From positions 1-64,000 of IMG/VR virus record IMGVR_UViG_2744054842_000001: 64,000 nucleotides of DNA, one strand, 5' to 3'. Made by a program: the position numbers and the translations under genes. Shown in pieces: positions 18,645 to 40,367 of this stretch. The first letter of the stretch is position 1. Every line of letters begins with the position of its first letter. The DNA comes from a virus (Duplodnaviria; Caudoviricetes). Below the pieces are notes generated by a model. It ran no database searches. It saw nothing but the letters and a program-made list of their open reading frames with translations, and was not told the origin of the DNA.

Positions 18645-21600
18645 CTACGTTGGGTTGCGCGAGAGCCCGTAGGCCGCTTCGATTGCCTGCGCACGCTCGC
18701 CCCCGCCCCAGATATCAGCCACGAAGGCGTCGATCTGCAGCTGGCCGTCTTCACCGGTGCGCTGATCAACAGTGCCGGCACGGGACCGGTCTTCGATCAG
18801 GTTCACGGTGACGCTTGGCTGGGCGACCACGGGCGCCTGGGTGCTGCCAGACGATTGAGTCGAAACAACCGAGCCGCCACCACCAGCCACCGATACCCGC
18901 TCGTTCGAGTTGATCGCCTCGAGCAGCACCCGGTTACGCTTGGTCGCCGCGGCATTCACCACGAACTCGCCGTCGCTCAGGCGGGCCATGATGCTGTCGG
19001 AGGTGCCGGTACCGGCGCCGGACACATAGCCACCGGTGGCGAAGCCCGGGATCACGGCCAGGCTTGACGCCAGAGCCGTGGTCGAGGTCAGCGCGGCCGC
19101 TGCAGGAACGGAGTTGGCGCCCAGCGTTGCAAGGGATGCCATCGCCGCCGCCGGTGCCCAGGCCGTGGCCGTGGTACCCGCCAGGATCATGCTCTGGCCG
19201 GCCGCGGCTGTGCCGAGAGTGGCGTTCAGCGCAGCATTCAGTGCCATCTGCACGCCCATCTTCACGAAACCGGCGATGATCTCGCGCACCACGTTCGAAG
19301 CGATATCGCCAAGCGTGCTCATGGACAGCTGCCCGCTCATGATCGCGTCGGTGATATCGGTCGAGATGGTGTTGAATGCGCTGGAGAAGATCGACTGCGT
19401 TTGCCCAGCAATGTCGCGCGCCTGGTTGCCGAAGTTCTGCACGGCAGCCGTCCACCCGTTGATCGGGTTGAGCATGGCCTGGTCGATCTGCGCCCAGCCA
19501 GCCTGCATCGCTGCAAGCTGCTGAGGCAGGAACTCGTTCGTCAGGTCGATCTGCGCCTGCAAGTCCTGCCGCTGCTTCTCCGTCGTGGCGTTCGCCAGTT
19601 CGGTGCGCAGCTGCAGGATGCGGTCGTTGGTCTGCTGCTCAAGCTGTACGCGCTGCTGCAGTCGTTGCGTCTGCTGGTCGCCCATGCCGACACCGGCTGC
19701 AGCAATGCTGTACTCGCTCTGCTGGCCTGAAAGCTGCCGCTCAAGCTGTGCCCGGTACTGCTCGGCCTGAGTGAGGCCTTGGGCTCCCTTTATGGCGGCG
19801 GCGTAGTTCAGCGAGGACTGGGCCAGCGCTTCATTGTACTGCTGCTGAGTGATCTTCCCTTTCGACAGCAGAAGCTCAAGCTGAGATTGGCGCTCGACAT
19901 ACTCTTGCAGCGCGAACTTGGCCGGCTGGGCCGCCTTATACAGGTTGTCGAAAGCGGTCTGGGCTTCGTTCAGCTTGCTCGATAACCCCTTCTGCCCTTT
20001 CGGAGATCCAGTGTTTCCGGGCTTCGCAGTGGTGTTTCCGTCAATCTGATCCAGTACTTCCTGAACCATCTCCGCAACCGTCTTGGTTTTCGGCGATGAC
20101 TTCGGTTGCGAGGTCGGCTGCTGCTGGCCAAAGGTCAGAAGGCTAGCCCCCTGCAGAGTTTGCTTAGGCTCGTATTTCTCGACCAGCGAAAGCCCCTTGG
20201 CGTAGCGCACTGTCTGGTCGATAACGGTTTGAATCGCATCAACCTGGCGCTTGGCGCTGGACTCGGCGTTCTCAGCCATGGTCTTCATGGAGCGCCCTTG
20301 GCTCTCCATTTGCGACTTAATGGCTTCGGACGCAGTGATCGAAGCTGTGAGCTGAACCCGCAGCCTTTCCTGGTCTTCCTTCTTGCCGTCCTTGACTGCC
20401 TCCTCGTACTTCTTGAGGAGGTCGGTTTGTTCTCCGATCAGGCGCGCATATTCGACCTGCTGGCTGTTGAATCCAGCCTTCGCAGCCGTATATGCAGCCT
20501 CTTGGGCAGTATTTGCGCCAATGAGGTCACGGGTTTGCGTCAGCTGGGAAATGTACTTTTCCCAGGCCTGCTCGCCACCACCGACTGCCGCAGCCGAGGC
20601 CTGCTGCGCGCTCGCCTGGGACTTGGCTGAACTGGTAGCACCATCAGTTGCGGTCTTGCTGCGGTCAAGCAAGCGGGCGTAGTCGTCAGCCTTCTGGCTG
20701 CTGGCGGAGTATTCGGCGCCGATCCTGACCAGTTCGTCGCGGTACACGCTGGAAATCTGGGTGTTGCTGGTCAGCCATCCGGTCAGCGAGTCCAGCGATC
20801 GCTGTCCGTTCCTGACCTCTTCAAACATGCGCTTGAAGGTGTCGGCCGACTCGACTCCACTGACGCCTAGCGAGTTCAGGCCATCGAACGCCCGGGTGAA
20901 ATACTCGCTGAGCGCGCTACTGGCGTCCTTAGCCGCGTCACGCTGGGCCTCCATCCATTTGGCCGACTGAAAGCGCTGCTGCTCGGCACTGAGCTGCCGG
21001 TATTTAACGATGGAATCGTCAAGCGTCAGGTTCTGGTCAATCAGCGACTGAGTGGCGCTGTCTGTGCTCGACGAAAAGTAGATGACGGCACCTGCAGCCA
21101 CGGTCAGCGCAGTGGTGAGCAGGCCTATAGGCCCTCCGGCCAATGCCATCAGCCCAGCCGAGGCCCGCGCGCCAAGCGATTGCGCGGTGTTCAGGCGAAC
21201 CTGTGCGGCGTTTTGCGCCACGACAGCAGCCGTGTCAGCCTCGCGCAGAGTCGTTAGCCGGGCCTGGCCTGCCGCAAGCTGGCTCTGAATGATGACCTCT
21301 TGCCCTGCCATCTGCCCAAGGGCGCGCTCCGCTGCTGCCTGCTGCAATGTTACTGCGGCCTCGGCCCTTCTGATCTCAGCAAGTCGGGTCAACGACTGCT
21401 GGCGACCAACATCGTTGATCTGCGCTTGGAGGCGCTGCGCCTCAAGCGCGCGATCAGCTGCCAGCTGCTGCTGCACTGCTTGCAGCTGGGCAACGGTATT
21501 TGCCTGGGCCGCTCTCGCCGCTGCGGTCTCGGCCATCGAACGCTGAGTGATTGAAACTGCAGCGGCTTGTTCGGCCACGGCCTTCCGAGAGGCTTGCGCC

Positions 21601-22673
21601 GTAGCTGCCGTGGCCGCCACTTCTGCCTGCCTCTCAGCGACTACCTGCTGCTGACTCGCCGCCAAATCGGCATAGCGAGCCTTAGTAGCAGCCGCAAGCG
21701 AAACCACCAGCCCAGTTCCGACCTTGGCTGCGTAGGCGCCAGTGATGGCCATGAGTACATCGGTGTTTTCCGCTACTGCCTTGAGGCCATCGCCGCCGAC
21801 CGCCACCAGGCTACCAAGAGCATTGGCAATGCTCTGGATACCCATGACCACTTCAGGCTTGGCGAGCGAACTGGCCAGGGCATCTACCGAGCTAACAACC
21901 GGGTCTACGTTGATCTGTCCGATAGCGGCCAAGAAGTTGTTCTTCAGCGCGACAGACGCCTGCTCGAAGCGGCGCGGCATCTTGTCCAATTCACTGTTCA
22001 GTGACGACAGCGATTGCAGAAGCGCGTTCGTAACCACATCGGATGTGATCTTGCCGTCAGCTGCCATCTGGCGAATTTCGCCGTTTGTGACGCCGAGATA
22101 ATCCGCCAAGGCCCTGGTAATGCGAGGCCCTTGCTCCATGACAGAGTTCAGCTCTTCACCGCGCAGGGTGCCGGATGCCAACCCTTGGGACAGCTGAATG
22201 GCGGCGTTCGACGCCTCTTGCATCGTCGCGCCAGAGATCACGAACGCCTTGTTGAGCGCGTCTGTGACGTTTAACAGTTGCTCCTGGGTGAATCCTGCGC
22301 CGCGCGTAGCGTTAGCCAGGCGCGTATACAGCGATACAGTGGCCTCCAGCGAGCTTCCGGTGTTGTTGGCCATCGCCAGCAGTTTCTGGAACGACTCATT
22401 AGCGTTCGTAGTCGACGTGCTAACAAGGGCCAGCGAGCCCTGCATGGACTTGAAGGAATCGGTTAGGCGCAGAACCTCTCGCGTCACTGCGCCGACGCCA
22501 AGAGCAGCAAGGGCACTGCCAGCCGCTCTAGCGGCATCACCTACTCCTCTGGTGCTTTCGGCAGCATCGTCGCCAGCCGCCTGCAGATTTCCCAGGCCAG
22601 ATCGCAACTGGTCGACCTGCTTCTTTGCACCACGCGAGTCGATGACTATCGCGAGTCTTGATTCCTGGGTCAT
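18645..22673 (-). CDS. Tail tape measure protein
   Basis: 1342 aa, Ala/Gln-rich, QLSQGLASGTLRGEELNSVMEQ, GFATGGYVSGAGTGTSDSI. Confidence 0.96.
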   Translation of the reverse strand: MTQESRLAIVIDSRGAKKQVDQLRSGLGNLQAAGDDAAESTRGVGDAARAAGSALAALGVGAVTREVLRLTDSFKSMQGSLALVSTSTTNANESFQKLLAMANNTGSSLEATVSLYTRLANATRGAGFTQEQLLNVTDALNKAFVISGATMQEASNAAIQLSQGLASGTLRGEELNSVMEQGPRITRALADYLGVTNGEIRQMAADGKITSDVVTNALLQSLSSLNSELDKMPRRFEQASVALKNNFLAAIGQINVDPVVSSVDALASSLAKPEVVMGIQSIANALGSLVAVGGDGLKAVAENTDVLMAITGAYAAKVGTGLVVSLAAATKARYADLAASQQQVVAERQAEVAATAATAQASRKAVAEQAAAVSITQRSMAETAAARAAQANTVAQLQAVQQQLAADRALEAQRLQAQINDVGRQQSLTRLAEIRRAEAAVTLQQAAAERALGQMAGQEVIIQSQLAAGQARLTTLREADTAAVVAQNAAQVRLNTAQSLGARASAGLMALAGGPIGLLTTALTVAAGAVIYFSSSTDSATQSLIDQNLTLDDSIVKYRQLSAEQQRFQSAKWMEAQRDAAKDASSALSEYFTRAFDGLNSLGVSGVESADTFKRMFEEVRNGQRSLDSLTGWLTSNTQISSVYRDELVRIGAEYSASSQKADDYARLLDRSKTATDGATSSAKSQASAQQASAAAVGGGEQAWEKYISQLTQTRDLIGANTAQEAAYTAAKAGFNSQQVEYARLIGEQTDLLKKYEEAVKDGKKEDQERLRVQLTASITASEAIKSQMESQGRSMKTMAENAESSAKRQVDAIQTVIDQTVRYAKGLSLVEKYEPKQTLQGASLLTFGQQQPTSQPKSSPKTKTVAEMVQEVLDQIDGNTTAKPGNTGSPKGQKGLSSKLNEAQTAFDNLYKAAQPAKFALQEYVERQSQLELLLSKGKITQQQYNEALAQSSLNYAAAIKGAQGLTQAEQYRAQLERQLSGQQSEYSIAAAGVGMGDQQTQRLQQRVQLEQQTNDRILQLRTELANATTEKQRQDLQAQIDLTNEFLPQQLAAMQAGWAQIDQAMLNPINGWTAAVQNFGNQARDIAGQTQSIFSSAFNTISTDITDAIMSGQLSMSTLGDIASNVVREIIAGFVKMGVQMALNAALNATLGTAAAGQSMILAGTTATAWAPAAAMASLATLGANSVPAAAALTSTTALASSLAVIPGFATGGYVSGAGTGTSDSIMARLSDGEFVVNAAATKRNRVLLEAINSNERVSVAGGGGSVVSTQSSGSTQAPVVAQPSVTVNLIEDRSRAGTVDQRTGEDGQLQIDAFVADIWGGGERAQAIEAAYGLSRNPT

Positions 22674-22739: not shown

Positions 22740-23378
22740 TTATTTCCTCAGCGCCATCAAAATCAGGACGAACACCACGCAAAAGGCGATAGCTCCAAGT
22801 GCCTTGCCGATAGCCTCGTTCTTTTCAGTTTCTGCGGCAGCCCTCTGATTTAGATCATCTGCCTGCCTGTTTAATCTATCAGCCTCAGCGCTCATGTGAA
22901 GGGTGTTTGCATTAAGCTCTTCCGCATACATGGCCTGGAGGGCAAGCGCCTCATCTGGAGGCAGGTTTTTCAACTGTTCGTTGAACCTATCCTGCTGATC
23001 AAGAGCGATCTGATGAATATTCTCGCCTCTTGCTGCGGCCGCCAGCAGTTCGTCGCTATCTGTCTTGACGTATCTCCGCACAGCCTGCCTATCCAGAGTC
23101 CTTTCCTGGCGACTGCTTCCCTCATGATGATCATTCTGATGGGGGGATTCCTGCAGAGAGCTATTCGACTTCGCTTCGAGTTCTGCAACATACGCGTCAG
23201 TGAAGATAACTACGTCCTCATCTGGCCATCCTTGCATGAGGTTTTTCTGAGACTCCTCATGCTTGAGCAGGAGAGCCTGAATATCCTCACCGCTTTTGGC
23301 CGCATGCTCCAGTTCAGCCATGAAATGTGCAGCAACAGTCCTTGCTAGGCTATTCAGATCATCCCTGCTTTGAGCCAT
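22740..23378 (-). CDS. Moron membrane protein with an internal two-fold repeat and C-terminal TM helix
   Basis: ELEHAAKSGEDIQ..AYVAELEA and ELLAAAARGENIH..MYAEELNA; C-terminal ALGAIAFCVVFVLILMAL. Confidence 0.7.
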   Translation of the reverse strand: MAQSRDDLNSLARTVAAHFMAELEHAAKSGEDIQALLLKHEESQKNLMQGWPDEDVVIFTDAYVAELEAKSNSSLQESPHQNDHHEGSSRQERTLDRQAVRRYVKTDSDELLAAAARGENIHQIALDQQDRFNEQLKNLPPDEALALQAMYAEELNANTLHMSAEADRLNRQADDLNQRAAAETEKNEAIGKALGAIAFCVVFVLILMALRK

Positions 23379-23455
23379 TTTTTGCCACTCCCGAGTTGAT
23401 GGCAGCAATCTACCACCATCAGCAGGAAGCGCCAAAACCCCGCGAATACAGGGTG

Positions 23456-23486
23456 AAAAAAAGAAAGGACACCCAAAGGTGCCCTC
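23456..23486 (-). terminator. Intrinsic terminator closing the pentamer array
   Basis: GAGGGCACC-TTTG-GGTGTCCTT hairpin followed by a T run on the minus strand. Confidence 0.7.
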
Positions 23487-23489
23487 TCG

Positions 23490-23727
23490 ATGCCGTTTAC
23501 GGCCCACGCCGGACCAAGCCATACCATGGCCAACCACGGCACGCCTTGTCACGCCCCAGCTCAATTGGCGGCTTACGCCACCGCAATACCCCCTCGACGA
23601 AGGAGCATTACGCTGTTTTCAGCCCATGCCACACCTTGTCACGCCATATCGCGCCGGACCCTTGCGAACCTAGCCGCATGATGCTTTCGCACCGCAATGC
23701 CCTCTCATAGAAAGGGCATGACGCTAC
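23490..23727 (-). ncRNA. Putative guide-RNA array (VIPR vrRNA-like): two units of hairpin scaffold plus phased GGY-NN pentamers
   Basis: 23675-23621: GGCTA GGTTC GCAAG GGTCC GGCGC GATAT GGCGT GACAA GGTGT GGCAT GGGCT; 23560-23501: GCTGG GGCGT GACAA GGCGT GCCGT GGTTG GCCAT GGTAT GGCTT GGTCC GGCGT GGGCC; shared ATTGCGGTG and GNRA hairpin. Confidence 0.75.
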
Positions 23728-24186
23728 TCAGCGCAGGGCCTTCGTCGCCATCCCGCGCAGCGCGGAGAACTTCGCCACCTGATCCAGGTTATCTCGTCGC
23801 TGATCGTCGGTCAGCTCAGTGATGCGCAGATTTCTCAGCTTCTGCCCAGTGCTGCGGAACACCTTGCGAACGTTGCGCCCAAGCTCTTCCATGGCCACCC
23901 CCGTCTGCTCATGCGGTGGCACCCAGCGATAACCGCGCCCTCGTACTGACTGCAGGCAGACCTGGTGATCGCGCAGCAACTCGGCCTTGAACGCCTCGAC
24001 GTTTGCCAGCCATTCGAACTGCCGATCGCGGAACTGCTCGACCGTGAGCGACTTGGAGTCACCCATGGAGGGCATGCCGAACCGCGCCTCAAGCCAGTCG
24101 TGCCCCACAAGGTCGCCGTACTTGAACTCCTTGAGGAAGTCCTCGACCGCCTGCTTGTGACCGGGATATTTGGTGAGCTCAGACAT
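23728..24186 (-). CDS. Accessory protein coupled to the RAMP-like gene
   Basis: 152 aa, overlaps the upstream stop; winged-helix-like LLRDHQVCLQSVRGRGYRWV. Confidence 0.8.
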   Translation of the reverse strand: MSELTKYPGHKQAVEDFLKEFKYGDLVGHDWLEARFGMPSMGDSKSLTVEQFRDRQFEWLANVEAFKAELLRDHQVCLQSVRGRGYRWVPPHEQTGVAMEELGRNVRKVFRSTGQKLRNLRITELTDDQRRDNLDQVAKFSALRGMATKALR

Positions 24187-24754
24187 AGACCACCTTGAAA
24201 CGACCGAACCGTGGGCGATACTCGCAGACACCGATCAGCTTGCCGGAGTCCTCGATGGCCTTCTTCACCTCCTGAAGGTCAAGCACATCGGCATTGATCG
24301 CCACCTCAAGCTGGCATGCCCAGTCGAGAAAGATCGGCCGGTACCGCATGATCTTGGCCTGGCCGACCTTCACTCCGCGGCAGTCGACGAAACGCTGATC
24401 ATCCCAAAGCGACTCCGGCGTCGATGGGCCGGCGAATTCAAGCTCAGCCTTGTCAGTCATTACCAAGGCTCCGCGCTTCCAGTGCGTCCCCAGCTTCTGC
24501 AGCTTGGCGCCTGCAAGGAATGTCGCGTCGAAGTTCGCGCCAGGGATGAAGAACCCGGACGATGAATCAAAATAGGCACCGGCGATGAACTCAGACCGAG
24601 CAATGGCCAAGTGATCATCATCAGTTTTCTTGCGCTTGGCGGTCAGCTCCTTGTGAGCCTTCGTAGCCGGGTGCAGCGGGTTTGCCAGCTTGTCGCTGTG
24701 CATCATCAGCGGCGAAGTGCCCTTGATACTCAGAGTTAACAGCTCCATGCTCAT
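24179..24754 (-). CDS. Stand-alone RAMP/Cas7-like protein (Vipr-like)
   Basis: LTLSIKGTSPLMMH first strand, FFIPGANF motif, C-terminal Gly-rich loop SGKLIGVCEYRPRFGRFKV. Confidence 0.7.
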   Translation of the reverse strand: MSMELLTLSIKGTSPLMMHSDKLANPLHPATKAHKELTAKRKKTDDDHLAIARSEFIAGAYFDSSSGFFIPGANFDATFLAGAKLQKLGTHWKRGALVMTDKAELEFAGPSTPESLWDDQRFVDCRGVKVGQAKIMRYRPIFLDWACQLEVAINADVLDLQEVKKAIEDSGKLIGVCEYRPRFGRFKVVYV

Positions 24755-25629
24755 TTCCCGGCCCTCCGGGTCATGTACTCGTATCGGCTTTTCAGGTTCA
24801 CGACAGCCGCCATCAAGAACTGGAACATTTCGGGAATCGAGACAGGAATATCGCCAGGAGTAGCAACCATGCCCTCCATCAACTCGCGCTTGGACAGGAT
24901 GAATGCGCCTTCTGATATTTCCTCAATGCTCTGCTGGCCTTTGTGGTCGAAAGCCAGCAAGTAGCGCTTGTGTGGCTCGCCGGCGATCTGAACAGGCTCA
25001 CGCTTAGGCAGGTGCTCGCCCTCGAAAACGTAGGCAGCGACGAAGTTACAGGCATTGGCCAGTTCTTCCGCCGGAATCAGTGCGGTCTTCTGAACGCTGA
25101 AGCGGGTGCGCAGCCGGCTCTTCATGGTGTGTTTGAAGCTACGGCGCAGTGCGACCGGGAGAGCGTTGGCCTTCTGATCGATGACCTGATCCAGAACGTG
25201 CTCGCCGTCACTACCTATTACCGTTCCCATGAGAGTCTGAACAGGTACAGGGAAGGAGCTTCCACCTTGCCCCTTAATCTGGAAGTAGCTGTCTTCCAGC
25301 TTCTCGAACACCTCCCAGGCTTCGTCGGTGTCCAGCATCTTGGCATGACGAGCAGCACCACGCTCAGTCCAGAGGATGAGGCTACGCGCCTGCTTATCAA
25401 CAGACCCGATATTATCGGGGCTGTTCTTGAAAGCCTTGAGATCCGCGCCTTCCAGCTTGAAAAAGTGCTTCCCGGCTTCAAATCGGTCTGCGTTGTTCTG
25501 GAAATTGTCCTGGATGTTTTTGGGCTTGGCTCGGTACACGCTAGCGAGTGCCGCAGTGGTAATGACCGGCAGCCCGGTAAAGCGAATGCGCGGGAGGTTG
25601 TCCGGCGTAATTGTTGTGCTATTATTCAT
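24751..25629 (-). CDS. Phage antirepressor (ORF6N domain)
   Basis: PVITTAALASVY..NFQNNADRFEAGKHFFKLEG..LWTERGAARHAKMLDTDEAWEVFEKLEDSYF. Confidence 0.9.
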   Translation of the reverse strand: MNNSTTITPDNLPRIRFTGLPVITTAALASVYRAKPKNIQDNFQNNADRFEAGKHFFKLEGADLKAFKNSPDNIGSVDKQARSLILWTERGAARHAKMLDTDEAWEVFEKLEDSYFQIKGQGGSSFPVPVQTLMGTVIGSDGEHVLDQVIDQKANALPVALRRSFKHTMKSRLRTRFSVQKTALIPAEELANACNFVAAYVFEGEHLPKREPVQIAGEPHKRYLLAFDHKGQQSIEEISEGAFILSKRELMEGMVATPGDIPVSIPEMFQFLMAAVVNLKSRYEYMTRRAGK

Positions 25630-25696
25630 CTCGACGTTTTTCCTAGACCGATTGACGTTATCCAAAGCCTCAGCGCCTGCCAGCACTGGGGCTTTT

Positions 25697-25864
25697 TCAT
25701 GCCCGCTGCTTTTTCTCATCCTGCATCTCCTGCTCGAGTGATTTTCTGAGCCGGAAGACAATCTCTCCGCTCAAGCTTCGCCCATTAATCTCCGCGCGCT
25801 GCTCCAGCTTTTGTCGCATATCGCACAGCATTCTCACTGCGGTGGTTATCTTCTTGGTACCCAT
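25697..25864 (-). CDS. Arc-family ribbon-helix-helix repressor (55 aa, not in ORF track)
   Basis: TAVRMLCDMRQKLEQRAEINGRSLSGEIVFRLRKSL; AGGAG RBS. Confidence 0.8.
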   Translation of the reverse strand: MGTKKITTAVRMLCDMRQKLEQRAEINGRSLSGEIVFRLRKSLEQEMQDEKKQRA

Positions 25865-25978
25865 ACCTGGCTCCTTTTCTTGCGTTTTGTGAGTTTAATG
25901 CCTTTGATTGCCTTGTCAAACATTTTTTGCTTTTTGTGCGTTTGATGTATGCTTCTAGAGACGTACATAGGGCGCGCC

Positions 25979-26404
25979 ATGTCTGACGATTTCGCAACAA
26001 AACTCATCTACCTGCGCGGCGAGAGAAACCTCACGCAGCAGGAACTGGGAGACGCCAGTGGTGTGTCTCCCTCACAGATTTCAAGGTATGAGGCTGGCCA
26101 GGCAAAGCCTCGTAAGACTGTGCTGAGAAAACTGGCCGAAGCACTTTGCGTGCCGGTGGAGGAGCTTCAAGACGAGGTTCCAGTCGTCCTAGAGAGTCCT
26201 GACGGCGATAAAATGCCGATCACGATAGACCGCGAAACCTTCGACCAGATGCAAAAAGCAGCCCGCGCATCAGGCAAGTCCTTGGGCGAAGTCCTGTCTG
26301 AAACCCTCGCCTGGGGCCTCCGAATGCTCAAAGAGAGCCCCGAATTCGCCGCCAGCCTTAAGCGACAGATCGAAGAAAGCCGAAAGGCAGATAAGGACGA
26401 GTAA
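25979..26404 (+). CDS. XRE-family HTH regulator with C-terminal RHH-like segment
   Basis: LRGERNLTQQELGDASGVSPSQISRYEAG. Confidence 0.88.
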   Translation: MSDDFATKLIYLRGERNLTQQELGDASGVSPSQISRYEAGQAKPRKTVLRKLAEALCVPVEELQDEVPVVLESPDGDKMPITIDRETFDQMQKAARASGKSLGEVLSETLAWGLRMLKESPEFAASLKRQIEESRKADKDE

Positions 26405-26487
26405 CCCCAAGCCCGGCCAAGCGCCGGTCTGACCCATCCGTTCATCGGGAATCACGAACGCCGCGGTCAGGCGCTCTACAATCGTCA

Positions 26488-26504
26488 TTAACGACCCACG
26501 TTAA
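26488..26504. promoter_or_regulatory. Probable HigA operator palindrome
   Basis: TTAACG-ACCCA-CGTTAA just upstream of higB. Confidence 0.55.
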
Positions 26505-26513
26505 GCGTTAACG

Positions 26514-26792
26514 ATGATTATCAGCTTCCGTTGCCAAGAAACGCAGACGCTGTTCACGACTGGCGCCTCTCGCAGATGGGCGCCAATTCTGTCTGTCGCT
26601 CAACGAAAGCTGACGATGTTGAATGAGGCGGTCGCCCTGAAGGACCTCAGGGCACCTCCCGGGAATCGCCTGGAAGCACTACAAGGGAACCGGCAAGGTC
26701 AATACAGCATCCGAATAAATGATCAGTACCGAATTTGCTTTACCTGGGATGCTCAGGGGCCTGAAAACGTTGAAATTGTAGACTACCACTGA
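26514..26792 (+). CDS. higB: HigB toxin (RelE/ParE family)
   Basis: DLRAPPGNRLEALQGNRQGQYSIRINDQYRICFTW..VDYH. Confidence 0.93.
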   Translation: MIISFRCQETQTLFTTGASRRWAPILSVAQRKLTMLNEAVALKDLRAPPGNRLEALQGNRQGQYSIRINDQYRICFTWDAQGPENVEIVDYH

Positions 26793-26800
26793 GGTGACTT

Positions 26801-27112
26801 GTGTTTACTAACGGCATGCGCCCGGTCCACCCGGGCGAGATCCTAAAGGAAGAGTTCCTCCATCCACTGGATCTCACTCCGACAGAGGTTGCTCGGAAAC
26901 TTCACGTTTCCCCTCCCACTGTATTGGACATTGTGAACGAGAAGCGCGGCATCACCGCTGACGTAGCATTGCGCCTCGCAACCTGTTTTGACACCACCCC
27001 CCAATTCTGGACGAACCTCCAGTCTGCCTACGAGTTGCGCAAAGCTGAAATCGCGCATGGAGCAGAAATACAGCGGCAGGTGCAAAGGGTTGTGGAGAAT
27101 GCTGAGACATAG
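26801..27112 (+). CDS. higA: HigA antitoxin
   Basis: RPVHPGEILKEEFL..GITADVALRLA..TTPQFWTNLQSAYEL. Confidence 0.93.
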   Translation: MFTNGMRPVHPGEILKEEFLHPLDLTPTEVARKLHVSPPTVLDIVNEKRGITADVALRLATCFDTTPQFWTNLQSAYELRKAEIAHGAEIQRQVQRVVENAET

Positions 27113-29839: not shown

Positions 29840-31009
29840 TTAAGCGGTGACGGTGACAGCACAGGTGTCGGTCTTGGTGCCGTCTGCGGCGCTGGTCGCG
29901 GTGATGGTGGCGGTGCCGGCAGCCAGGCCGGTTACCAGGCCGGTGGCGCTCACGCTTGCGATGGCCGGGTCCGAAGAGGTCCAGGTAACCAGCTGGCTTG
30001 CGCCAACTGGGGTGACCACGGCCTCGAGATCTGCAGTTTCGTCCACCGCTAGGCTCAGGGTGGCCGGGGTTACTTCCACCGCAGCAATGACGACGGGCGC
30101 CGGCAGACGGGTGATGGTCGGCGGCACGCGGCGGGCGGTGTATGACAACTCGACTTGAACGATGTCGGTGGCGCCACCGTCCGGCCAATCGCCGCTGACT
30201 TCCATCTCGGGGATGAGGAAGGTGTAGCCACCGTCTGCGTTGCTCAGGGTGAACTCGAAGCTGAGCGAGTCGCCGGTCTGCTGCGCCTTCCAGTACTGGT
30301 AGGCGGTCTTGGACCAACTCAGGGTGATCGAGCCGGACGGAACGAACGTCGTTGTGATCACTGCCCCGGGAAACGGGTTGCCGTTGCCGATGCAGCGCTG
30401 GGTCTGCGAGTTGTTGGCGAACTGCAGGTTGAAGGTGTCAACGCACGCGTTGTCGTCACCCAGCTGCACGCCGTTGATCTTCAGCCCGGTCACATCCTTG
30501 AAGCCGTAGCGCCGCTGGTTGGCCTCGGGCGCAGGACTGACGATGAAGGAAGTGTTGTCGGCCTTGTCCTGCCACGAGGTGGCCATGAACGTGGTGGTGA
30601 CGCTGATCTCGTTGTCGTTCGGGACCTCGATGTTGATCGTGTCAACCTGGGCTCCGCGAGCGATGCCGGCGATACCAACGTCCGCGTCATAGGCAGCGAT
30701 GGAGAACGAAATGCGATCGTTGCCCATGGTCAGGGTATTACCGGACCAGTTCGCGCCGAAGCAGGAGGCCAGGAACTCGTCCAGAGCCCCGTAGCGGAAC
30801 TTGGTCTCGATATCGCCGCCGACATCCACGGTCGTCTGGGCAGTGCCCTGCGACATGCGAGTCTCGCCGATCTCGTTGTTCTCTTCGGTGTTGTAGGTAG
30901 GCACCAGGCCGAAGCTGACGCGGGTCAGCACGTTCCATGGGCCTGGCGGGGTAATTCCCGGGGTGATCTCGCGAATCCACGCGGTCGAGCGCTTTGCACC
31001 GCTACTCAT
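29840..31009 (-). CDS. Major tail tube protein with C-terminal Ig-like (Big_2) domain
   Basis: MSSGAKRSTAWIREITPG..; VTWTSSDPAIASVSATGLVTGLAAGTATITAT. Confidence 0.9.
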   Translation of the reverse strand: MSSGAKRSTAWIREITPGITPPGPWNVLTRVSFGLVPTYNTEENNEIGETRMSQGTAQTTVDVGGDIETKFRYGALDEFLASCFGANWSGNTLTMGNDRISFSIAAYDADVGIAGIARGAQVDTINIEVPNDNEISVTTTFMATSWQDKADNTSFIVSPAPEANQRRYGFKDVTGLKINGVQLGDDNACVDTFNLQFANNSQTQRCIGNGNPFPGAVITTTFVPSGSITLSWSKTAYQYWKAQQTGDSLSFEFTLSNADGGYTFLIPEMEVSGDWPDGGATDIVQVELSYTARRVPPTITRLPAPVVIAAVEVTPATLSLAVDETADLEAVVTPVGASQLVTWTSSDPAIASVSATGLVTGLAAGTATITATSAADGTKTDTCAVTVTA

Positions 31010-31125
31010 GGGGTGTTTCTCCTTTCGATAGGCGTAAAAAAACCGCCATGTGGCGGTGAACGATTTGATGCGCGATGCCGGCCCGGATAGCATCAATAAT
31101 TTTGCGGCAACATTGGATACAACAA

Positions 31126-39065: not shown

Positions 39066-40367
39066 TCAGAAAGTGAACGTGATTGGTACGTGGGTAACCG
39101 GCCTGCTGATCGGGTAGTCGTGGTGGATGAAGTAGCCACCCGCGTCGTTCGCGTGGTCCACGCCGGACTTCTTGTCGGGCTCGCCGTTGGCCGCCCATAC
39201 CTGCTGCTCCAGGCCGTCCGCATAGGTCGGGCAGCGCAGCGGGTTGACCAGGTAGCGGCGTTCGCCATTCGCGTTGCAGAACATCGCGTTCATGGCGTTG
39301 ATGCGGTCTTTCACTGGCGGGTTGGCATCGGGAGCTATGACGCTGAAGCCGGCCTGGCGCAGGATGGCAATGTCCGTCTCGCTGGCGTTCACCGACTTGC
39401 GTGACCCGCCCGAGGCGTCGGGGTAGATCCTGATCTCGCAGGTCTTCTCGTAGCCCCTGCCGTTGTGCCGCCAGTAGCGCTCCTTGATGCGCCGGATCAT
39501 GTCCGGGGTATCGAAGCCGTCGATCAGCTCATCCACCGCTCTGGGCTTTCCGTCAGGCCGTTTGACATGAACGATCGCCGCCATCTTGCCGACGTTGAAG
39601 TCCATGCCAATGAACAGGGGTTCTCCAGGCTCTACGGTGTCGAAGCAGGAATTCAGCTTCCTGTCGTAGGCGTGGTAGATCGACCCGGAGTTCAGGTTGA
39701 CGAACTGGCCGTTCAGGTAGGCCATGATCAACTGGGCCGGGTACGACTCCATCAGCGACGGGATGTAGTCAGGCGGTAGGTTCAGCTCGTTGTCGAACGT
39801 GCTGGCCTGGACCAGGCCGTACATGCCCTGCAGGGCCGGCTTCTCCCGAAGCTGCTTCACGAACTGCTGGTAGACGAACTTGAACCCCTCAGGGGTCGTG
39901 GTCACATCCACGCCGTTCTTCAGCCCTGGCTCGTTGTAGCGCATCCGGGCAATGATCTTGCGCCAGGCGTGTTCGGCCTTCAGTGCGGGCAGCACATCGA
40001 GCTCATCGACCAGGGCGTGCCCGATCTTGAAGCCCACGATAGTCTGCGGCTTCTCCATTGAGCGGCAGATGGTCGTGCTGCGGTACTGGCCGCCGCTGTA
40101 GAACTCGACCTCCTTGTCGCTCTCCTTCGTCTTGACCTTCAGGCCCCAGTCGAAGGCGACCTCCTCGATGGTGGGGAAGAAGATGTCGCGGATCTGCGGG
40201 TAGGTCGGGGCGAAGTAGCCGGAGTCGATTCGGGGCCACTCCCACACGTGCTTGCACAGCGCCGCGCAGCCTACCCAGGTCTTGCCCGAGCCGAACCCGG
40301 CGACGAAGCCGCGGAACTTGTTCTCCATCCGAAGGAAGCTGGCCTGGGGCACGTTAAGTGACGGCAT
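39066..40367 (-). CDS. terL: Terminase large subunit
   Basis: Walker A AGFGSGKT, ALVDE, TTTPEG, GMDFN, DHANDAGGY. Confidence 0.95.
   Translation of the reverse strand: MPSLNVPQASFLRMENKFRGFVAGFGSGKTWVGCAALCKHVWEWPRIDSGYFAPTYPQIRDIFFPTIEEVAFDWGLKVKTKESDKEVEFYSGGQYRSTTICRSMEKPQTIVGFKIGHALVDELDVLPALKAEHAWRKIIARMRYNEPGLKNGVDVTTTPEGFKFVYQQFVKQLREKPALQGMYGLVQASTFDNELNLPPDYIPSLMESYPAQLIMAYLNGQFVNLNSGSIYHAYDRKLNSCFDTVEPGEPLFIGMDFNVGKMAAIVHVKRPDGKPRAVDELIDGFDTPDMIRRIKERYWRHNGRGYEKTCEIRIYPDASGGSRKSVNASETDIAILRQAGFSVIAPDANPPVKDRINAMNAMFCNANGERRYLVNPLRCPTYADGLEQQVWAANGEPDKKSGVDHANDAGGYFIHHDYPISRPVTHVPITFTF

Follow-up and report, generated by a model that had tools for sequence, protein, structure and literature searches.

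A type II VIPR locus among the tail genes of a Pseudomonas siphovirus prophage, with guide RNAs that very probably target rival tail-tube genes

What are two arrays of degenerate five-nucleotide repeats doing between the tail genes of a prophage, and do the variable bases within these repeats carry information? The DNA that raises the question is a 75.6-kb provirus of siphovirus type, of which a continuous stretch of 64 kb (hereafter the window) was analyzed; the repeat arrays occupy a 350-nt gap separating minus-strand genes. A preliminary description of the window had proposed that the variable dinucleotides of the repeats are two gapped target codes. Such a gapped 2+1 code is not new, because the published VIPR (Viral Interference Programmable Repeat) model, as set out in the main text of the preprint, says the same (10.64898/2026.04.26.720920). 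According to that text, a VIPR system is built from Vipr, a minimal RAMP protein, and Vap, an accessory protein, together with vrRNAs, which consist of 9–16 YNNGG repeats and a structured 3′ tail. The NN pairs recognize dsDNA and pass over one base of the target each time, in most cases at the wobble position of a codon, and the outcome is transcriptional repression; natural targets are found in rival phages, and the systems studied are those of phage SUSP1 and a P. fulva prophage (10.64898/2026.04.26.720920). The accompanying structural preprint describes one protomer per repeat, with GGY flipped out, in a filament that forms an R-loop triplex (10.64898/2026.04.26.720927). Here, we argue that the locus in the window is very probably a type II VIPR moron lodged among the tail genes of a Pseudomonas siphovirus prophage, with vrRNAs that would silence the tail-tube genes of rivals.

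Anatomy of the locus and its relatives

The elements of the locus form one string on the minus strand, listed here in the direction of the genes.

25892..25919, minus strand: promoter-like site, TTGACA-16-TAAACT, 10/12 consensus matches, upstream of rha-vipr-vap1-vrRNA; predicted operon start
24751..25761, minus strand: Rha/ORF6N-type antirepressor gene, directly upstream of vipr and overlapping its start (Pfam ORF6N, 7e-18)
24179..24754, minus strand: vipr, 191 aa, RAMP fold (phrog_4652, 7.6e-73)
23728..24186, minus strand: vap1, 152-aa accessory protein, probably winged-helix (phrog_5926, 1.1e-47)
23680..23727, minus strand: leader, with a tail-like hairpin (23722 to 23694) and a GNRA-type hairpin GGUGC-GAAA-GCAUC (23693 to 23680), before the first repeat tract
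23623..23677, minus strand: vrRNA 1 repeat tract, 11 pentamers, guide GC TA TC AG CC GC AT GT AA GT (+AT, unmatched)
23558..23625, minus strand: vrRNA 1 3′ tail, three hairpins and then a linker
23503..23562, minus strand: vrRNA 2 repeat tract, 11 pentamers (12 with GA-GCU), guide (GA) GG GT AA GT GT TG AT AT TT CC (+GT)
23455..23505, minus strand: vrRNA 2 3′ tail, small hairpin GCCG-UAAA-CGGC (23503 to 23492), intrinsic terminator (23488 to 23463) and a U run

Scans with Pfam and PHROG place a tape-measure gene at 18645-22673 (minus strand), with tail genes downstream, and detected no cas families among the 14 neighboring ORFs. The antirepressor gene matches PHROG anti-repressor families (best E-value 5.6e-47), and a Rha-like gene is present in the same slot upstream of vipr in Pseudomonas phage Medea1 and in many related loci. 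Adjoining the VIPR string, at 25949-27112 (plus strand), are an HTH gene (Cro/C1-type) and a HigB/HigA-like toxin-antitoxin pair. The VIPR string, the HTH gene and this pair all sit between the tail-tube and tape-measure genes and form a moron island that interrupts the tail module. Immediately after the vrRNA terminator, a 212-aa ORF (22740-23378, minus strand) falls into no family of Pfam or PHROG; its place in related loci is taken by unrelated small ORFs, several of which start like lipoproteins or membrane proteins, and it looks like a variable moron slot.

The Vipr protein was modeled with AF2 (pLDDT 73.9, pTM 0.69). Searching the PDB with this model using Foldseek gave 38 matches with E ≤1e-3; every match among those listed is a Cas7-family subunit of a CRISPR system, the best being 8z4j_F (7e-5). 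Vipr is 40% identical (E 3e-53) to a 195-aa ORF of phiSUSP1, the numbering of which agrees with the published Vipr residues. Residues H17, K33, R39, K82, R138 and R179 of the SUSP1 protein are kept in the window Vipr, while D177 is replaced by E and W178 by Y. Hence, K33, K82, R138 and D177, which the structural preprint gives as essential by mutation in SUSP1 Vipr (10.64898/2026.04.26.720927), are kept or conservatively replaced. Moreover, a C-terminal G-loop-like motif is invariant among 14 homologs. Vap1 is more distant from its counterpart, being 22% identical (E 2e-13) to the ORF that follows vipr in phiSUSP1. Its AF2 model (pLDDT 74) yielded no Foldseek matches with E ≤1e-3; winged-helix DNA binders predominate among the weak matches at the top of the list, a faint indication that Vap1 may belong to this class.

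The gene order is conserved among relatives. A search with the 152-aa Vap1 recovered 42 IMG/VR loci; vipr directly precedes vap1 in 44/44 other loci (one of them cut by a contig end), and one to five repeat units follow vap1 in nearly all 44, the tail-based parser calling 43 and missing L043. Phage Medea1 carries the same gene string with one repeat unit and a fully compensated hairpin stem. Relatives of Vipr itself are present in 136 phage records, mostly Felixounavirus-like; in one of these, SUSP2, the genes are arranged alike and the gap beside them holds GGY/NN arrays. Relatives with 45-90% identity were noted in 22 genome loci (L046-L067) and extend beyond Pseudomonas, to contigs titled Pelagibacterium, Pusillimonas, Achromobacter, Comamonas, Telluria, Rhodoferax, Acidovorax, Vreelandella and others, one of them in a MAG labeled Methanobacteriota archaeon, and arrays with tails could be parsed in 13 of the 22. 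Phage records of Mycobacterium, Gordonia and Listonella phages also hold Vipr relatives.

The repeats run on the minus strand from 23677 to 23503 as two tracts, each of 11 NN-GGY pentamers, and the dinucleotide lists given for both units in the preliminary description are exact in this frame. A scan of both strands of the window for at least seven in-frame NNGGY units yields only the two tracts and one 7-unit run in coding DNA (40269-40303), and the tracts therefore exceed what chance would give. Across the clade (84 unique arrays), the three fixed positions of the pentamer are G in 91%, G in 75% and C/T in 89%, and both N positions are near uniform. Tandem Repeats Finder reported only a weak 10-nt period (23518-23540), because the pentamers are too degenerate, and a search of Rfam gave four matches with E-values of 3.2-7.9, all far under the gathering scores, and no known family. 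As had been noted, the two units have a 15-nt block in common (23645 to 23631 and 23555 to 23541, 14/15 bases identical), which is also present in unit-2-like arrays of two related loci (L011 and L024). The duplication or recombination between units that was suggested to explain the block is plausible, though short of proof, because both units have a GAC triplet that departs from the consensus. In a separate observation, 22 of the 84 unique arrays have at least 18 in-frame pentamers and some have 19-31 (L004, L009, L010, L012-L017, L019 and others; the first arrays of L009 and L010 have 31), counts that may include, in some arrays, 2-3 surplus units added by the array parser on the 5′ side. 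The L009 array shows internal duplications.

Each tract is followed by a structured tail. In vrRNA 1, the tail is composed of a small hairpin (GCUG-AAAA-CAGC, 23623 to 23612), a hairpin with a variable 10-bp stem (23611 to 23583) and a third hairpin (GGUGGC-GUAA-GCCGCC, 23582 to 23567). In vrRNA 2, the small hairpin is followed directly by a terminator-like site in which 11 pairs precede TTTTTTT (23488 to 23463), and the compensated GCCG/CGGC stem recurs in the terminal units of 30 related arrays. The leader elements are likewise present in Medea1, where the stem is fully compensated, and in related loci. In an alignment of 41 tails (A4), 99% of the cells are paired and two-sided changes are seen at 10/10 pairs of helix 2; none of 500 shuffles attained the observed values, and slid controls gave 29-56% paired. 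In columns 25-37 and 48-63 of this alignment (41 units), the loop of the 10-bp hairpin keeps UUC...GAG, and GNRA-like loops (GAAA, GUAA, GACA or AGAA) are usual in the third hairpin. Judged from these sequences, a loop-loop or pseudoknot contact in the vrRNA tail is conceivable.

The skip rule and the probable targets of the two guides

If the dinucleotides are a code, the number of target bases skipped between them should be recoverable from the matches. The test was done with 75 unique guides of the clade, scoring windows of nine dinucleotides with at least 17/18 base matches at skips of 0-3. The larger database (430 kb) was in part chosen because the guides of the window match tail tubes; the other, referred to as blind, comprises the window and 39 upstream flanks (180.6 kb) and was fixed before any target was known.

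430-kb database: skip 0, 9; skip 1, 725 (167 perfect); skip 2, 0; skip 3, 0; shuffled NN order, 0-0.8 (mean of 5)
Blind 180.6-kb database: skip 0, 9 sites; skip 1, 40 sites from 6 guides; skips 2 and 3, 0; shuffled NN order, 0-0.2 (mean of 5)

The idea that one base is skipped per pentamer is thus borne out, with 725 matching 9-dinucleotide windows at a skip of one against 9, 0 and 0 at the other skips and less than one with shuffled order. Counts of such 9-dinucleotide windows and of near-identical loci are not independent, and the blind test amounts to approximately six independent guide-site events at skip 1 versus one at skip 0. The skip-0 signal was examined as a candidate and rejected: its nine sites are one 17/18 event copied in nine near-identical loci, including the guide's own, and it stems from the 5′-most, probably non-guide, window of one guide. 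The one-base skip rule is therefore reproduced from sequence in the present clade. Moreover, at the tail-tube sites the skipped base is codon position 3, in keeping with the earlier suggestion that the code ignores wobble.

The targets of vrRNA 1 became apparent only when the ends of its guide were corrected. As listed in the preliminary description, unit 1 gave 30 places compared with 24 for a reversed-pattern control (≤3 mismatches, 401 Pseudomonas genomes), and the proposed enrichment failed for this pattern; exact searches of IMG/VR with the full-length patterns gave no matches for unit 1 and none for unit 2. However, a P. laurentiana prophage (L087) matches all the unit-1 dinucleotides but the last, plus an additional GC at the 5′ end (20/20). 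The boundaries given earlier (23501-23675) therefore call for correction: unit 1 needs the extra 5′ GC at 23677-23676, which is matched in every target, and its 3′ AT is unmatched. With these boundaries, 19 exact matches were found in IMG/VR. The significance of unit 1 rests on the correction, because the uncorrected pattern is without bulk enrichment; the boundary was corrected after the L087 match had been seen, and the later IMG/VR scan is an independent collection. For comparison, approximately 0.001 exact unit-1 matches would be expected by chance in the 401 genomes, as estimated from the 24 control places with ≤3 mismatches.

In L087, the target belongs to a different tail-tube lineage: the gene product (387 aa) is 41% identical to that of the window, and the gene is on a contig that also carries the prophage's own VIPR locus. 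All 19 of the IMG/VR matches are inside tail-tube homologs that are 76-93% identical to the L087 protein. These sites are antisense and in codon phase and read TFTMAGLDYA, and the skipped bases vary while every NN is kept. The preliminary description had predicted that the reverse complement would read [IM]T[FL]T[IM]AGL[DE][Y*]; the sites, in tail-tube genes of rival prophages, read (A)TFTMAGLDY. One of the 19 is on a contig carrying another VIPR locus (L008). These data suggest that vrRNA 1 would aim at the "TFTMAGLDYA" tail-tube lineage, including at least two VIPR-bearing prophages.

For vrRNA 2, the pattern as first listed was already enriched: with a gap of one base and ≤3 mismatches, unit 2 matches 17 places (in 16 genomes) among the 401 Pseudomonas genomes versus none for the control. 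With a gap of two bases, the same genomes gave three places versus nine. On the opposite strand, 15 of the 17 places, translated from the printed matches, read GNII(P/Q/A)TTF(T/V)P, and the gene is again a tail tube (Phage_tube_2, 9.4e-31, with Big_2; Pfam). Here, too, the predicted peptide, TG[KN][IM][IM][HQ]TT[FL]TP, corresponds to what the antisense sites in tail-tube genes read, (P/A)GNII(P/Q/A)TTF(T/V)P. Over 106 loci (L068-L173), which include 80 tail-tube loci that are the best 80 of 456 relatives, 28 match at 20/22 and 63 at 19/22, most of them with a tail-tube site. Unit 2 may have a further repeat, GA-GCT, at its beginning: GA is present at the corresponding target position in 62 of these 80 tail-tube loci. 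With this extra 5′ GA, and over the 80 tail-tube loci only, 21/22 is reached in 20 and 20/22 in 40. A perfect unit-2 target was found neither in IMG/VR nor in the 401 Pseudomonas genomes nor in the loci, the best being 20/22 (21/22 with GA); the true target may be unsampled, or it may be something else. An 18-base core of unit 2, searched exactly in IMG/VR, gave four matches, which is approximately the chance level, and none is in a Pseudomonas-type tail tube; this candidate was set aside. Two of the four read GNI[IM]QTT[FL]T, in unrelated ORFs.

The 3′ ends of the guides show a common feature. In the best targets, the tail-proximal dinucleotide goes unmatched, which applies to AT in unit 1 and, within the GT of unit 2, to the T; none of the 19 exact unit-1 targets continues into the AT. 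This dinucleotide may belong to the tail and not to the guide. Among the best target matches of 14 guides, only 5 extend fully into the dinucleotide adjoining the tail, which is often AT followed by GGGCYG. Guide boundaries matter in such searches, because one missing 5′ dinucleotide together with one unused tail-proximal dinucleotide turned 19 exact matches into none.

Does the phage spare itself? Its own tail-tube gene (29846-31009) is 84% identical to the L075 type, and at the site in question it reads GAVITTTFVP, where unit 2 matches 14/22. The statement in the preliminary description that no match exists in this phage holds for the whole 64-kb window, in which neither guide has a site with ≤3 mismatches and the best match for both is 15/22; within the window, 15/22 is the background level. 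Unit 2 would accordingly be aimed at "GNII(P/Q)TTFTP" alleles within the same tail-tube family as the phage's gene, and the phage's own GAVITTTFVP allele would be spared.

Signs of cross-targeting, a proposed mechanism and rival explanations

Other VIPR phages appear to be engaged with the same gene. The guides of L004/5/7, L008, L023 and L024 match the tail-tube family, as do both units in the window. The vrRNA 1 of the window matches the tail tube of the L008/L186 phage at 20/20, and the first guide of L008 matches the start of the window's tail-tube gene at 17/18; because each one's guide matches the other's tail tube, the targeting between these two phages appears to be mutual. More broadly, unit 1 of L004/L005/L007 and unit 1 of L008 reach 17/18 against the window's tail-tube gene (30180-30229 and 31002-31039). 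Unit 1 of L047 (P. laurentiana) reaches 16/18 at the start of this gene, which is borderline versus a background of 13-15; apart from this unit, the best windows of 31 arrays from 22 genome loci are at background against the window (13-16/18).

The vipr gene itself is also matched. Unit 1 of L023 corresponds to positions 24633-24676 (minus strand) of the window's vipr at 18/18 in its best 9-dinucleotide window and at 22/24 overall, with a one-base skip, and unit 1 of L036 matches there at 17/18. This site is matched in many sibling loci as well. The observation fits the "VIPR targets VIPR" of the preprints, the main text of one of which describes competition between elements with some guides targeting vipr genes (10.64898/2026.10.15.759431).

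By analogy with the published systems, the following mechanism can be envisaged. The string of promoter-like site, rha-type antirepressor gene, vipr, vap1, two vrRNAs and intrinsic terminator would be transcribed as one unit, from 25919-25892 to the terminator, and the array would then be cut into two vrRNAs. Each vrRNA would present approximately ten informative pentamers, with one Vipr protomer per repeat flipping out GGY, as in the SUSP1 and P. fulva structures. If the preprints apply at this locus, the NN pairs would read dsDNA with two bases paired and one skipped, and the filament would form an R-loop triplex that blocks transcription and does not cut DNA. Binding within the tail-tube gene of a rival would block late transcription and result in fewer rival virions upon co-induction or superinfection. 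Repression of a late structural gene would, on this model, be a means of competition.

We also consider, more tentatively, that VIPR and the tail-tube gene might together form a linked "weapon plus immune allele" cassette that acts as a poison-antidote or drive element, a possibility that we regard as doubtful. In such a cassette, the guides would aim at short variable tail-tube patches of sibling phages, and the phage's own mismatched allele would reside approximately 5 kb away. A recombinant that acquired the cassette but not the allele linked to it would silence itself, and the action would therefore be of a poison-antidote or drive-like kind. If this holds, the cassette would push allelic divergence in a structural gene, and guide units would be passed on through recombination, to which the shared block with its GAC triplet points.

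The silencing of rival tail tubes has to be weighed against other explanations of the same data. It is unlikely that the locus is a VIPR system in which the tail-tube matches are a by-product of guide ancestry, while the real targets are elsewhere, for example in lysis-lysogeny regulators. Such a view can draw on the main text of the first preprint, where the P. fulva clade is defined by >90% identity to the P. fulva Vipr, where 36 of 66 targeted guides of this clade point to a single prophage locus, chiefly to regulators, and where tail tubes are never mentioned (10.64898/2026.04.26.720920), as well as on the missing perfect match for unit 2. However, unit 1 matches 20/20 in L087 and in all 19 IMG/VR sites, within one gene family, in codon phase and with the wobble base varying; two guides of the window and those of several other loci converge on the same family; and the 401 genomes hold no better site for either guide. 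It is still harder to believe that the repeats are merely iterated binding sites for an oligomeric RNA-binding protein, a TRAP-like sponge or scaffold in which the NN are meaningless spacers. The 3+2 periodicity and the approximately 11 repeats per unit do resemble TRAP sites, but the NN are informative, in that matches appear only at a skip of one and vanish when the NN order is shuffled. In addition, the adjoining protein has a RAMP fold and not the TRAP fold, and arrays ranging from approximately 10 to 31 repeats are unfit for a fixed ring.

The position of the locus inside the phage's own tail module, beside the regulators Rha, the HTH protein and HigBA, might instead suggest that the guides regulate the phage's own genes, in the late operon or the immunity region. 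This we consider to have next to no probability, given that the window is devoid of sites with ≤3 mismatches, that the best and the homologous own sites stop at the 15/22 and 14/22 given above, and that the first preprint, in its main text, found no self-targets (10.64898/2026.04.26.720920). Repression of tail-tube genes of rival phages remains the explanation that we prefer.

Comparison with known systems

The first reading of the locus was that of a TRAP-like protein-binding repeat RNA, which was dropped after the VIPR literature and the skip-rule tests had been considered. TRAP (MtrB) binds the Bacillus trp leader RNA at approximately 11 tandem (G/U)AG triplets with 2-nt spacers, as an 11-mer ring with one subunit per triplet. 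In the window, by contrast, the triplet is GGY, the protein is of the RAMP filament type and the spacers are informative and read DNA. An attenuation RNA of TRAP type was rejected on these grounds: the GGY triplet, the absence of such a Pfam family among the neighbors and the presence of a RAMP-fold neighbor.

The likeness to the backbones of class 1 CRISPR effectors (Cas7/Csm3/Cmr4 on crRNA) is closer. There, too, a protein with a RAMP fold places one protomer on each fixed RNA step, and, as the structural preprint describes, a thumb periodically interrupts the guide-target duplex (10.64898/2026.04.26.720927). However, neither a CRISPR array nor cas1/cas2 or any other cas gene lies near the locus, as judged from the 14 neighboring ORFs. 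The VIPR period is 5 nt with 2 paired, in contrast to 6 nt with 5 paired in class 1 CRISPR, and the VIPR guide is interleaved with the protein-binding motif, whereas the CRISPR guide is flanked by repeat handles. Membership in class 1 CRISPR-Cas was rejected, in view of the 5-nt period, an organization other than repeat-spacer units and the lack of any cas family.

With type II VIPR, the locus has in common a RAMP protein of approximately 20 kDa, an adjacent vap1 homolog, vrRNAs built of GGY and NN, and a structured 3′ tail. Further likenesses are the wobble skip, targets on either strand, the absence of a self-target, carriage by a phage, and the targeting of rival elements that include VIPR loci. 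All of the sequence features of a type II VIPR system, namely Vipr, a vap gene, repeats, 3′ tail, skip rule and lack of a self-target (in the 64-kb window), are thus present. The description of the family also gives Vipr an RRM core, a G-loop and a thumb, has the vap product predicted to bind DNA, and includes vrRNA species of approximately 100 nt that co-purify with Vipr; dsDNA binding and transcriptional repression by the RNP are known for the SUSP1 and P. fulva systems only. Departures from the published description can also be named. The tail in the window consists of a small hairpin and a covarying 10-bp hairpin, with a third hairpin between the units; for the tail of the SUSP1 clade, the preprint's main text describes a pseudoknot. 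The locus lies inside a tail module, behind a Rha-type antirepressor gene, unlike those described, and both of its guides aim at tail tubes, of which the main texts of the preprints make no mention. Finally, some arrays of related loci parse to 19-31 repeats, as opposed to the 9-16 stated there.

Collectively, the locus is a new example of the VIPR family described in the 2026 preprints and not a new kind of system. Part of its value is confirmation, since the skip rule is reproduced on a clade and on collections other than those in the main text of the preprints. What it adds are natural targets in two tail-tube lineages, with allele specificity, and signs of mutual targeting between VIPR-bearing phages, together with an unused tail-proximal dinucleotide and arrays beyond the published repeat range. 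For the calling of vrRNA targets, this means that late structural genes, besides regulators, can be targets and that arrays of more than 16 repeats exist.
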